Origin: a virus
Taxonomy: Duplodnaviria > Heunggongvirae > Uroviricota > Caudoviricetes
Reading direction: 5' to 3' (one strand)
IMG/VR virus record: IMGVR_UViG_3300038451_000684
Length of the DNA: 13,372 nt
Shown: piece after piece, positions 29 to 6,749 of the stretch
Layout: each line of letters opens with the position of its first letter
Numbering within the stretch: position 1 is the stretch's first letter
Position numbers and translations under genes: made by a program
The notes under the pieces: model-generated
Seen by the model: only the letters and a program-made list of their open reading frames with translations
What the model was told of the DNA's origin: nothing
The model's database searches: none

Positions 29-295
29 TTAATGACCAATTTGCGCAGCATTGTAGACGTTCGACGGTGACGCCGTCGTCACCGTGTAATTGCAGCTGCC
101 CGGCATCTCCGCGTTGTCCTGAACCGGTGTATAAGTCCAAGCAGCAATTTGCGGTTCCGGCCGAAAAGGTTCTTGAAGACCTCTAGTCAGTCGCGAGATT
201 GCATCCCTTTCTACTCCGGCTTCGCGCTTGAGGGTTTCAGCGGCGGACGCGAAGCAAGATACCCCAGCGAAAGGTTTTTGCCGCTGGGGTGTCAG
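29..295 (-). CDS. Putative -1 frameshift extension (88 codons) of the 292..513 gene, giving a 161-aa fusion
   Basis: The -1 frame is open from 376 to TAA at 31-29, with no ATG/GTG/TTG until about 25 codons before its end. Translation: LTPQRQKPFAGVSCFASAAETLKREAGVERDAISRLTRGLQEPFRPEPQIAAWTYTPVQDNAEMPGSCNYTVTTASPSNVYNAAQIGH. It is entered from the slippery site at 301-295. Confidence 0.5.
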   Translation of the reverse strand: MTPQRQKPFAGVSCFASAAETLKREAGVERDAISRLTRGLQEPFRPEPQIAAWTYTPVQDNAEMPGSCNYTVTTASPSNVYNAAQIGH

Positions 296-320
296 AAAGG
301 GCGGACGACAATATCCACCT
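261..320 (-). promoter_or_regulatory. Candidate -1 programmed ribosomal frameshift signal
   Basis: SD-like AGGTG (320-316), X XXY YYZ heptamer C CCT TTC (301-295), TGA (294-292), then a perfect 9-bp stem ACCCCAGCG (290-282) / CGCTGGGGT (269-261). Confidence 0.6.
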
Positions 321-513
321 GCGGCAGCTTGTCCAGGTACTCTTCGGGGATGCTGCGCGAAGCCAGAATCGATACCTCATCCGGGCCCGCCGCCAGCACC
401 CTTGTTACGTCGGTCAGGATCACCGACTTGGTTGTTTCTTCGTTGCCCGCCAAGTCTTTCTTTGCCTTGGGGTGGTATAGAACTGCATATTCAAACAAAC
501 TGCTTTTCGCCAT
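292..513 (-). CDS. Small phage hypothetical protein ending in VRPF (73 aa)
   Basis: Strong RBS AAAGGAG before ATG 513; globular alpha/beta-like composition; the 5' end overlaps the upstream gene by 23 nt. Confidence 0.85.
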   Translation of the reverse strand: MAKSSLFEYAVLYHPKAKKDLAGNEETTKSVILTDVTRVLAAGPDEVSILASRSIPEEYLDKLPQVDIVVRPF

Positions 514-751
514 TGTTTTCTCCTTTGGTACTTGTTGTGCTTGTTTCCACCAGGAATCTGTCCAGCAATTTGTGTGCGCATACCTGTCCGCAAAGATGAA
601 TGGCGTTCATGCTGTCAAGGTCGTTTTCGATCTCCGCCGCGTCCCACGCTTCAATGGAAAAGCAGACTGCGTCCTTGGTTGCCACAAACCAATGGTTGGC
701 TTCCTTGCGCTCGACTCCACAGATATCGCAGTTGTAGCTGGTTCGCTTCAT
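491..751 (-). CDS. Small Zn-finger-like protein (CxxC...NHWF...HLCGxxC), 86 aa
   Basis: The ORF track starts at 829, but ATG 751 has AAAGGA 8 nt upstream, directly after the stop of the upstream gene. The CDICG...NHWFVA...HLCGQVCAHKL pattern resembles a family I recall from Acidobacteriota (unverified). Confidence 0.8.
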   Translation of the reverse strand: MKRTSYNCDICGVERKEANHWFVATKDAVCFSIEAWDAAEIENDLDSMNAIHLCGQVCAHKLLDRFLVETSTTSTKGENNGEKQFV

Positions 752-4416: not shown

Positions 4417-4641
4417 CTACTCCTGTTCGCGCCCGAGACACTGGTCGAGCCAGGAGTGGAAGTGAATGGTCAACGTCTTGGCCTCGTCGGCCGTCAGTCC
4501 GTTGTCCAAAGAAAAGCTTGATCCGTCCTTGCGCACTCCCAGCACCAGCAGCTTGGCAATCTGCGCATCCTCTTCCACGATGCGCGCCGCAATGGTCCGC
4601 ACTCCGTTTTTCTGTTCTCCATTTTCTGTTTCTTCAGGCAT
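4417..4641 (-). CDS. Hypothetical protein (74 aa)
   Basis: RBS GAAAGG/GGCGGA; the N-terminus is encoded by degenerate heptamers GAAACAG AAAATGG AGAACAG. Confidence 0.75.
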   Translation of the reverse strand: MPEETENGEQKNGVRTIAARIVEEDAQIAKLLVLGVRKDGSSFSLDNGLTADEAKTLTIHFHSWLDQCLGREQE

Positions 4642-4654
4642 AAGCAGTTCCGCC

Positions 4655-4689
4655 TTTCCCTAACCCCTACCCCCTACTCCCCAACCCCT
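4655..4689 (-). repeat. G-rich heptamer array, potential G-quadruplex
   Basis: AGGGGTT GGGGAGT AGGGGGT AGGGGTT AGGGAAA: five G-runs of 3 or more G with 2-4 nt loops, in exact 7-nt register. Confidence 0.85.
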
Positions 4690-4708
4690 GCGAACGCTTT
4701 GCGTTCGC
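4690..4708. other. Perfect 8-bp hairpin immediately after a stop codon, no U-tract
   Basis: GCGAACGC-AAA-GCGTTCGC on the minus strand, between TGA 4711-4709 and the G-rich array. Confidence 0.7.
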
Positions 4709-4945
4709 TCACTCCACTCTCCACACCCGCATTCCCTCGTCGTCGTACTTGCAATAGAAATGCTTCTCTCTTTGCAATCCATAAAGACCAACATCGATAC
4801 TCGATATGGGCGGAAAAATGCTGTTCGGTGCGTTGGGAATGTAAATGCTATCCAGTATCTCCATCTGCATTAGCTCCGGCACGACCTTCTCCGCCCGAGG
4901 TTTGACATCCGGTAGCGGCACATTCTTTTCGATTGCAATCGTCAC
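4709..4945 (-). CDS. Small phage protein, putative DNA-binding (IEKNVPLP...DS...RVWR family)
   Basis: GTG 4945 overlaps the upstream TGA (GTGA) and has GAGG upstream; the motif pattern is typical of small phage proteins. Confidence 0.75.
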   Translation of the reverse strand: MTIAIEKNVPLPDVKPRAEKVVPELMQMEILDSIYIPNAPNSIFPPISSIDVGLYGLQREKHFYCKYDDEGMRVWRVE

Positions 4946-5172
4946 TGTGCTTCCTCGCATTCATCTGGATATAAATCAATTTCGTGATCATTTTCAGCGC
5001 GACCGCAATAAAGAAAACCTGCTGGCAGCTTGTGGTCCATTCGAACCATCGCGCCTCCCTGTCTGCTTCTTTCCAGAGGGCGCACGACAACGCCATATTG
5101 CTCGTCCAGTTTTCCGCCAAAAACCCCGGTTCCACGAACAACGATTCGTTGTCCAACACGCAGTTCTTTCAT
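4942..5172 (-). CDS. Hypothetical protein, SH3-like beta barrel
   Basis: ATGA overlap with the methyltransferase stop; LRVGQRIVVRG...GVVV pattern. Confidence 0.75.
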   Translation of the reverse strand: MKELRVGQRIVVRGTGVFGGKLDEQYGVVVRPLERSRQGGAMVRMDHKLPAGFLYCGRAENDHEIDLYPDECEEAQ

Positions 5173-6749
5173 CTCGCCTCCGCTTGATTGAACAGCGGCG
5201 CATCCGCCTCAATCCGCCGCCGCGCAATCTCCACATACTCCGGGTTCACTTCAATGCCGATGAAATTGAAGCCTTCTTGCAGCGCCGCAATGCCCGTCGA
5301 TCCCGAGCCCATAAAGCAGTCCAGCACCGTGCCTCCCGGCGGCGTCATCAGCCGGCACAGATAGCGCATTAACGCAATGGGCTTCACGGTCGGATGATTG
5401 TTGCCGCGCATTTTGACGGTGTTCATTCCGCTGTCGCCTTTGTGGTCCAGGTTGCCGCGCTTTACCTCCGCTTGCGCCTGATTGCCATAAGCCAAGGGCT
5501 GTGCAGCAAGGCCAGCGCAGCCGATCTCGCGTTCTTCTTTGCTGGCCTTGGCGCAATAAAAGAACCGCGCTGCGGAACCTGCATCCAAGCGGCGGGCGCC
5601 CGGCAGCGCGGCAAAGTTAGTTGCCCCTTCTGTCGCGTAACGGCGGTTGGCGCTTGGCTCCCCATCGCGCGGGGTTGAGGTTGCGCGCGTTTTGAATTTC
5701 CCGTAGATGCCTTGCGTACTAAAACTTGGTTCCTCGCCGGTTACCACACCCACCGCACCCGGCGCGTCAGGAAACGCCGCCAGCACTTCTTCGCTGCCGT
5801 CATGGATTACGTTGGCCGGCCACCGGCCCATTTGATTTGGAATGACAACGCGGCGGTTTTCCTCGTGCGCGATAATGTTTCCGCCATTGCCGCCGTTGAT
5901 GTGCGTCCGCAACTGTGGATTCAAAGCAAGATTGCCCTCATCCACCGTCACGTACTCCACGCGGCACGCATCGATGTTCAGCGCTCCGGTTCCGTATTGC
6001 AGAACATTGGCCGCCACGGTTCCGGCCAGCGGCTTACGCGCAACAACTATTGGTTCGTGCGCCGGTTTCAGCGCCGTGCCCCAGCCTGCCCATTGCATGG
6101 CGGCATCTGTAGCCGGTGCAGTAATTGGTTGTGCCGGATAGTCATAACTGACTTTGCGCGTGTCGCTGTATTGCTGCTGAGCTTTGCCGCGGTGATAAGG
6201 TGGCGGTCCAATGACCTTCCGTTCGGCTCCCGCCATCTTGTCAATCGCCTTGCTCACGTCCAGCGATTTTGGGAAGCCGCTGCCATAAATCCACATAATC
6301 TGATCGCGAATCTCGAAGCCCGCGTCCTCGACGGCGCAAGCCAGCCGATGGTAAGTGCGGCTGCCGCCAAAGGCCAGCAGATACCCGCCCGGCTTCAACA
6401 CGCGCAGCGCTTCTTGCGCCCAGCGCTCATGCCACTCTTGCAGCGCTTGCATCACATGCTCGTCGGCGCCGTAGCTCGCGCCGTTGCCGTTGCGCACCTT
6501 GCTGCGGCCATACGGGCTGTCCGGCGTCTGCATCGTACCGTCGAATCCTTGACGGTGATCGGTCTTTTTCGTTTTTGGGCTAACCCCTAACCCCTGATTC
6601 CTAACCCCTGCTTTCCATGGCGCATCCCAGTCTTTGCCCATGAACTCCAGCCCATACGGAGGGTCGGTCACGATGGCGTCCACCGACTCATCCGCCAGCG
6701 TCTTCAGTTGCTCCATCACGTCGCCCTCCAGAATTCGATACACGCTCAC
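5169..6749 (-). CDS. Beta-class N6-adenine/N4-cytosine DNA methyltransferase (N6_N4_Mtase family)
   Basis: N-terminal catalytic DPPY, HPTVKP, C-terminal SAM-binding FMGSGSTG, separated by a long variable region. Start is GTG 6749 or 6743, downstream of the stop at 6758. No cognate restriction enzyme is seen. Confidence 0.95.
   Translation of the reverse strand: MSVYRILEGDVMEQLKTLADESVDAIVTDPPYGLEFMGKDWDAPWKAGVRNQGLGVSPKTKKTDHRQGFDGTMQTPDSPYGRSKVRNGNGASYGADEHVMQALQEWHERWAQEALRVLKPGGYLLAFGGSRTYHRLACAVEDAGFEIRDQIMWIYGSGFPKSLDVSKAIDKMAGAERKVIGPPPYHRGKAQQQYSDTRKVSYDYPAQPITAPATDAAMQWAGWGTALKPAHEPIVVARKPLAGTVAANVLQYGTGALNIDACRVEYVTVDEGNLALNPQLRTHINGGNGGNIIAHEENRRVVIPNQMGRWPANVIHDGSEEVLAAFPDAPGAVGVVTGEEPSFSTQGIYGKFKTRATSTPRDGEPSANRRYATEGATNFAALPGARRLDAGSAARFFYCAKASKEEREIGCAGLAAQPLAYGNQAQAEVKRGNLDHKGDSGMNTVKMRGNNHPTVKPIALMRYLCRLMTPPGGTVLDCFMGSGSTGIAALQEGFNFIGIEVNPEYVEIARRRIEADAPLFNQAEAR
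6580..6609 (-). repeat. AGGGGTT heptamer array in-frame inside the methyltransferase gene
   Basis: AGGGGTT AGGAATC AGGGGTT AGGGGTT AG, encoding AGVRNQGLGVS. Confidence 0.85.

Follow-up and report, generated by a model that had tools for sequence, protein, structure and literature searches.

Among the closest described systems, gene 10A/10B of phage T7, gene 10 of phage T3 and the major head protein gene of Lactobacillus phage A2 gain a C-terminal extension by a late -1 ribosomal frameshift. The T7 heptamer is G_GUU_UUC, and slippage on U_UUC, with tRNA-Phe moving from UUC to UUU on the bacterial ribosome, is known from this gene (PMC5009743). The tail-chaperone frameshift is conserved in long-tailed phages, as Xu, Hendrix and Duda 2004 are cited for in PMC5009743 and PMC10885494, and C_CCU_UUU is a proven slippery site of West Nile virus (PMC11507841). 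Here we analysed an uncharacterised gene at positions 29-513 (minus strand) of the IMG/VR virus record IMGVR_UViG_3300038451_000684 (Caudoviricetes); the whole stretch of 13,372 nucleotides (nt) is called the window. The gene encodes a protein of 73 amino acids (aa), and the comparison with related loci suggests, with a probability of roughly 0.88, that its last two sense codons are the site of a programmed -1 ribosomal frameshift. The elements of the gene and its surroundings are the following:

292..513, minus strand: short-form open reading frame (ORF) of 73 aa, ATG at 513-511 and TGA at 294-292, read from the sequence
520..526, minus strand: ribosome-binding site AAAGGAG, 6 nt 5' of the ATG at 513-511, read from the sequence
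295..301, minus strand: slippery heptamer C_CCT_TTC (X_XXY_YYZ), in phase, read from the sequence
292..294, minus strand: zero-frame stop TGA, abutting the heptamer, next base C
261..290, minus strand: 3' hairpin of 9 Watson-Crick pairs (290-282/269-261) plus G281-U270, with a loop of 10 nt, from folding
32..295, minus strand: -1 frame extension of 88 codons, with its stop TAA at 31-29, from translation
38..91, minus strand: conserved C-terminal motif N-Y-T-V-T-T-A-S-P-S-N-V-Y-N-A-A-Q-I, from alignments of extensions
315..320, minus strand: Shine-Dalgarno (SD)-like AGGTGG, 14 nt 5' of the CCT codon, present in the window and not conserved in the family

The 3' end of the gene reads CGC (303-301), CCT (300-298), TTC (297-295) and TGA (294-292), and 4 nt separate the heptamer from the stem of nine base pairs (bp). 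The folding energy of the 91-nt site context was -33.3 kcal/mol (z -2.3), and the 70 nt 3' of TTC gave a z of -2.6. The four remaining Pro codons of the 73-aa gene are CCC, CCG, CCC and CCG. The long form would comprise 161 aa, with a predicted junction at which ...V-R-P-F is followed by L-T-P-Q-R... The original prediction, made from the letters of the window, had described the gene end, the heptamer, the stem, the SD-like sequence, the Pro codons and the -1 ORF, and on re-reading every one of these statements proved correct. The window alone cannot show that the arrangement exceeds chance; the comparison of about 100 loci indicates that it does.

A search of a word-indexed database with the short protein yielded 86 homologs of 66-118 aa, nearly all of 73-74 aa and ending in R-P-F. 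A profile search over 1.84 billion representatives (E up to 1e-3) returned 749 clusters at 50% identity. Nearly all of 150 representatives examined have the domain at their very C-terminal end, with an RPF ending in 101 of 149. DNA for comparison was drawn from 44 contigs of viruses and 80 of metagenomes, supplemented by a few single look-ups, from which 102 non-identical loci with a GC content of 0.28-0.69 remained after duplicates were dropped. Smaller subsets were used for the analysis of codon choice (the first 39 loci), reading frame (89 loci), folding (90 loci) and the C-terminal motif (95 extensions).

A T-ending codon before TTY (NNT_TTY) was found in all 102 loci; this codon was CCT in 95 of them, and the exact C_CCT_TTY was kept in 87. 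It had been predicted that C-CCT-TTY would stand just before the stop in homologs, and relatives encoding RPF with non-slippery codons, the outcome set against this, were not seen. The terminal Pro codon was CCT in 38 of 38 loci, in comparison with 23 of 142 (16%) at the other Pro codons of the same genes, and the preceding Arg codon was CGC in 30 of 36 cases as against 14 of 69 at Arg codons elsewhere. CGC before CCT was retained even at loci of about 30% GC. For the 38 loci, the product of the local CCT codon frequencies amounts to 10^-24.8, a value to be read with the restriction that the loci are not phylogenetically independent, although protein identities among many of them are as low as 33-60%. 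Variants that have lost the Pro codon still end in T at this position (AGT TTT, ACT TTC, TCT TTT and TTT TTC), and their -1 ORFs span 91-100 codons. With the conserved T, tRNA-Phe can re-pair on UUU, and with the conserved C, tRNA-Pro can do so on CCC; a slip site demands both bases, and the function of the protein needs neither. A stop codon follows the heptamer immediately in 96 of the 102 loci (TAG in 72, TAA in 13 and TGA in 11). The bias towards TAG (72/96) is strong and C is often the next base; a role of slow termination is possible.

The reading frame downstream of the stop behaved in the same direction. In every one of the 89 loci the -1 frame remained open for 44 codons or more beyond the stop (median 71), whereas the same openness was found in 9/89 loci for the 0 frame and in 16/89 for the +1 frame. 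Conservation of an open -1 frame had been anticipated, and interruption of this frame by stops in close homologs, named beforehand as the contrary outcome, was not seen. The tails differ widely in length and sequence, yet they end in a common motif of the approximate form N-Y-T-V-S-x-A-x-P-S-x-x-Y-N-A-A-Q-I, in which T71 and A83 were invariant and Y81 nearly so in the alignments of extensions. The core [ST]-Y-x-[ASTV]-[ASGN] occurred within the last 22 residues of 56 of the 95 extensions, compared with 1.8 in shuffled tails. This C-terminal motif is probably a short docking peptide.

In two relatives the long form is encoded in frame. At locus L054 (protein P0081) CCT TTC is followed by one additional C, and locus L038 reads CCT TTC TTG; both encode R-P-F-L... 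and then a motif-bearing tail. Two further loci, L106 and L108, are near-identical to P0081 yet require the shift.

A homolog was also found in a 735-kilobase (kb) uncultured phage (LR756501); a search of GenBank phages gave two records, both belonging to this one unannotated genome. Its homolog ends in CGC CCT TTT TAA, and the -1 frame runs for 188 codons with a Pfam Collagen match (E 8e-9, above the curated cut-off). Within this locus (L058; LR756501.1, 259365-262565), the -1 frame at 1701-2264 contains 21 unbroken G-X-Y triplets and a Ser/Thr-rich end. A word-index search for longer homologs found none, and a single peptide pattern scanned over 185,579 species genomes gave no relative. Positions 1-700 of the window, or close variants of them, were present in peat, pond and wetland metagenomes, and also in four runs labelled viral metagenome from a single study. 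For this region, no insertions or deletions were listed in the contigs of public runs, and none of the listed base differences fell within 241-384, which includes slip site and hairpin.

Folding of the loci pointed to a structured RNA at the position expected for a stimulator. The 45 nt just 3' of the heptamer had a mean of -15.6 kcal/mol, compared with about -9 in segments taken from other parts of these loci; this region was more stable than elsewhere in 82 of 90 loci (p 4e-15), with the minimum of the minimum free energy falling exactly 3' of the heptamer (82/90). Close relatives of the window carry hairpins of 8-11 bp with CCCC.../...GGGG arms, differing inner sequences and spacers of 5-6 nt. 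Stem sequences vary between relatives while pairing persists; the compensatory hairpin that had been predicted for the homologs was thus recovered as stems that change by compensation. A second group shows a short stem that begins at the G of UAG and a loop that pairs downstream across an A-rich linker, the pattern of an H-type pseudoknot. In this subgroup, stem 1 was paired to 90% with three compensatory pairs, as against 23-47% in controls with slid partners, and the H-type pattern was detected in 15 of 100 loci versus 2-5 of about 100 at control offsets. Across the family the spacer ranges from 2 to 6 nt, and in many loci pairing in the downstream stem begins with the G of TAG.

Two other observations concern the folding of this region. 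A second, weaker dip with a mean of -12.8 kcal/mol (about -9 elsewhere in the loci) lies about 105 nt 5' of the heptamer, near 400-445 of the window (minus strand), inside the 73-aa ORF and in relatives. In addition, the sequence GAAAGGG at 205-211 of the window (minus strand) lies 80 nt downstream of the heptamer, to which it is exactly complementary and with which pairing would be possible. As a family feature this pairing was rejected, being limited to close relatives (10/98 loci).

From these data we propose the following course of translation. Most ribosomes would read ...CGC CCU UUC, terminate at UGA and yield the 73-aa short form. Some would pause over C_CCU_UUC, held by the hairpin 4 nt downstream, and slip backward by one base, whereby tRNA-Pro would exchange CCU for CCC and tRNA-Phe would exchange UUC for UUU. 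The next codon would be CUG (Leu), and reading of 88 codons would complete the 161-aa long form. Both forms would have the folded N-terminal alpha/beta domain in common, to which the long form would add a mostly disordered tail ending in the motif of about 18 residues (NYTV...YNAAQI). That ribosomes do shift here, and at which rate, we infer from the sequence comparison.

With regard to the tRNA route, tandem slippage is favoured, by about two to one, over a single slip of tRNA-Phe with the stop codon in the A site, because the C before CCT is so well kept; moreover, C_CCU_UUC with a hairpin 4-5 nt away, as found in the window, is the textbook arrangement for tandem slippage. The single slip, which is compatible with a programmed frameshift, would take place while termination is slow: tRNA-Phe alone, on UUC in the P site, would move back to U_UU next to an empty A site occupied by the stop codon, and re-pairing of tRNA-Pro would be dispensable. 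It would explain why NNT_TTY comprises the only invariant bases and why the stop is adjacent in 96/102 loci, with its bias for TAG and a C often following. It would also account for 15 loci that keep long -1 ORFs with tandem re-pairing impossible (seven with AGT, ACT, TCT or TTT before TTY, the rest with A, G or T before CCT), and structures located 2-3 nt after the heptamer would suit a ribosome one codon further on. The C before CCT, however, is needless for this route and is nevertheless present in 87/102 loci, with CGC kept at about 30% GC; three loci with the sense codon GCG after the heptamer retain the -1 ORF, and the spacer of 4-5 nt in the window is canonical for tandem slippage. As the main route in the window, a single-tRNA slip therefore appears rather unlikely.

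Other explanations do without a ribosomal shift. If the downstream ORF were a separate gene, translated from an internal start or by termination-reinitiation next to an unrelated hairpin, it would be natural to find a separate small ORF called in the downstream frame of some relatives, as is the case (77 aa from GTG in locus L004). Start codons in the -1 frames are scattered across the loci, and some loci have GTG or TTG within the first few codons; but the first ATG, GTG or TTG comes as late as codon 63 in the window and codons 33-38 in six relatives, and two others lack any such codon. As the downstream ORF, furthermore, is in the -1 frame in 89/89 loci and not in a random one, slippery codons are selected at synonymous sites and in-frame fusions exist, we consider two separate genes very improbable. 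A change at the level of the nucleic acid, either by slippage of RNA polymerase on C3T3 or by DNA length variants mixed in the population, is hardly likely, given that the runs known to cause transcriptional slippage (review PMC5009743) are far longer than three T or three C and that the window has just three of each in a row. Relatives with CCT TTT T do carry a run of five T, and the single extra C of L054 lies at the site, both as this explanation would have it; the contigs of four metagenome runs, which hide rare variants, had no insertions or deletions over 1-700, and ribosomal frameshifting requires just such a 3' structure, which is conserved here, together with X_XXY_YYZ phasing. Mere coincidence, with the hairpin as an intrinsic terminator and the 88-codon -1 frame as a chance product of GC-rich DNA, has next to negligible probability. 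It is true that a moderately U-rich stretch follows the stem and that GC-rich DNA has many long spurious ORFs. The hairpin was not called in a terminator scan, though, relatives have no U tract after their stems, and about 100 loci of 28-69% GC, which are not near-clonal copies, with protein identity down to 33%, all share the pattern of an open -1 frame, the motif and the codon choice.

Several results weigh against a programmed frameshift in this gene family. Both in-frame fusions could be assembly errors. No obvious 3' structure was found in AT-rich distant members, and in many relatives the structure begins only 2-3 nt after the heptamer; the usual spacer is 5-9 nt, with cases of 2-3 nt also on record (PMC5009743). 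The upstream SD-like element is not conserved: a comparable motif occurred in only about 16 of 39 loci (about 40%), codon choice at this site was the same as in the rest of the gene with no bias toward the motif, and it occurs because Val-Glu/Asp codons stand there. Of the dnaX/IS911-type architecture claimed in the original prediction, the heptamer and the 3' structure thus stood, whereas the upstream SD did not. In close relatives, change in the tail is rapid and hardly concentrated at third positions, substitutions at codon positions 1/2/3 being 13/12/17 in the tail and 4/1/11 in the upstream ORF. This means weak purifying selection over most of the tail, and a dN/dS below 1, which had been expected for the extension, was not clear along its whole length; selection acts on the openness of the frame and the terminal motif and leaves most of the linker aside. 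A stable fold of the tail was not found by AlphaFold2 (AF2), which predicted a mostly disordered chain with a helix at residues 28-40 (predicted local distance difference test, pLDDT, 62; predicted template modelling score, pTM, 0.15). Of the helical tail suggested earlier, one predicted helix is left, with the rest mostly disordered and no folded helical domain. Finally, no significant hit (E up to 1) came from Pfam and PHROG scans with the short form, tail and flanking frames as queries, and no convincing match for the fold of the N-domain was obtained in searches of PDB, AFDB clusters, BFVD, VIA-wide and Atlas.

One sigma-70-like match (TGGACA, 16 nt, TATTGT) lies at 308-335 of the window (minus strand), just upstream of the slip site. 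With one match found versus 0.5 expected, it is probably due to chance.

The short form was predicted by AF2 as a small alpha/beta domain with the order strand-strand-helix-helix-strand (pLDDT 93). Fold searches returned common alpha/beta look-alikes (PurS, PaaB and eL20, with Z at most 6) or the family itself, and the protein Atlas gave unnamed viral clusters. A complex prediction for the N-domain with the last 40 residues of the tail scored 0.09. The placement of sequences by MAFFT had suggested the tail motif to be a repeat of the N-domain helix, which was rejected after hhalign gave a probability of 5.6%.

In the window, genes for an integrase, a replication initiator, a primase-helicase, a DNA methyltransferase and an antirepressor lie upstream on the same strand, and the 73-aa gene follows the antirepressor and small ORFs. 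Relatives were found in complete genomes of 119-134 kb with terminal repeats. Neighbouring genes are not conserved between loci; in relatives they include AAA ATPases, a DUF932 protein and an Xre/RES pair, with fibre-like proteins further off. The pair, at 4547-5526 of locus L004, among the closest relatives, about 1.3 kb downstream of the gene, consists of an Xre-like antitoxin (PF09722, PF20432) and a RES toxin (PF08808) and comes after a 336-aa protein; from its domains it looks like a toxin-antitoxin module in an accessory region. The Pfam models Phage_capsid, Terminase_6N, Terminase_6C and TerL_ATPase had no hits in three of the large genomes (G003, G004 and G005; 119-134 kb, 99-100% complete), whose structural genes must be very divergent, and for this reason the gene could not be placed relative to the structural module.

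What the two proteins do can be suggested with low confidence only. They may form a non-enzymatic adaptor at a fixed short:long ratio, in which the flexible tail with its terminal peptide would tether assemblies of N-domains to a partner. A virion or assembly-associated, fibre-like role, which the collagen-like stalk and most phage precedents suggest, might have close to an even chance, and an early role directed at the host or at DNA, suggested by the gene context, is a more tentative possibility. The family spans about 750 clusters at 50% identity, from 30-kb contigs to the 735-kb phage. In a combined reading, which is speculative and as a whole doubtful, it would represent one of the largest conserved recoding families outside tail chaperones, and its product would be an early or accessory adaptor and not a virion block; the frameshift would add a disordered tether with a docking peptide, or a collagen-like stalk in the huge phage. 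As the slip site directly precedes the stop (mostly UAG, with C frequent as the next base), the short:long ratio might then depend on how efficiently termination proceeds, and hence on the state of translation in the host.

Altogether, the results refine existing knowledge and overturn nothing: the mechanism is classical, and its probable use by this gene family is new. In every record examined the long form is missing or the tail is called as an orphan small ORF, and LR756501 is without any annotation. Once the shift is recognised, this widespread family of phage genes can be annotated correctly; the shift also speaks for a conserved protein with two isoforms and a docking peptide. The roughly 100 natural variants of one site, which include the same heptamer with either hairpins or pseudoknots, spacers of 2-6 nt and variants where only tRNA-Phe could slip, are good material with which to test the rules of bacterial -1 frameshifting beside a stop codon. 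Searches of literature and annotation, which were not exhaustive, revealed no description of the family, in agreement with the statement in the original prediction that none was known.

When compared with the known systems, the window shares the X_XXY_YYZ heptamer, the downstream hairpin and a spacer within 4-6 nt with Escherichia coli dnaX. In dnaX, however, the -1 frame stops almost at once and the shifted product is shorter, whereas it is longer in the present family; dnaX also needs its upstream SD stimulator, which the family has not conserved. The NS1' signal of West Nile virus (C_CCU_UUU with a pseudoknot; PMC11507841) has the same heptamer, and a pseudoknot likewise occurs in some relatives of the window. 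Flavivirus NS1' is made by an RNA virus on eukaryotic ribosomes and from a site with no adjacent stop, and the shared signal is convergent and implies no homology.

In the phage T7, T3 and A2 genes, as is proposed for the family, a short and an extended form are obtained from one phage gene with the site at the end of the short ORF, and the re-pairing of tRNA-Phe from UUC to UUU is the same as proposed for the window. Unlike the family heptamer C_CCU_UUY, which abuts the stop, T7 uses G_GUU_UUC, and its stimulator is a distant 3' element instead of an adjacent hairpin or pseudoknot. The T7, T3 and A2 proteins are major capsid proteins, with an immunoglobulin (Ig)-like extension in T3 and A2 (Ig-like domains added by a frameshift are known from Listeria phages as well), whereas the family combines a 73-aa domain with a tail predicted to be disordered and its gene is located among early or accessory genes; no search gave a capsid or tail fold for the N-domain, and the extensions had no Pfam Ig-type hit.

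Phage Lambda gpG/gpGT provides the parallel of a small ORF with a -1 slip site just before its stop and an N-terminal part common to both products. Its genes lie between those for the major tail protein and the tape measure, which is not the case for the family in the window or in the loci examined, and by position the family is not a tail chaperone. No match to tail-chaperone families, which are themselves very divergent, was obtained with Pfam or PHROG (E up to 1). The short form has about half the size of gpG, and the extension is a disordered tail with a motif in place of a T-like domain. Common to Lambda G/GT and to the family described here is that the signal has been kept across very divergent phages, presumably for the purpose of a fixed ratio of the two forms.

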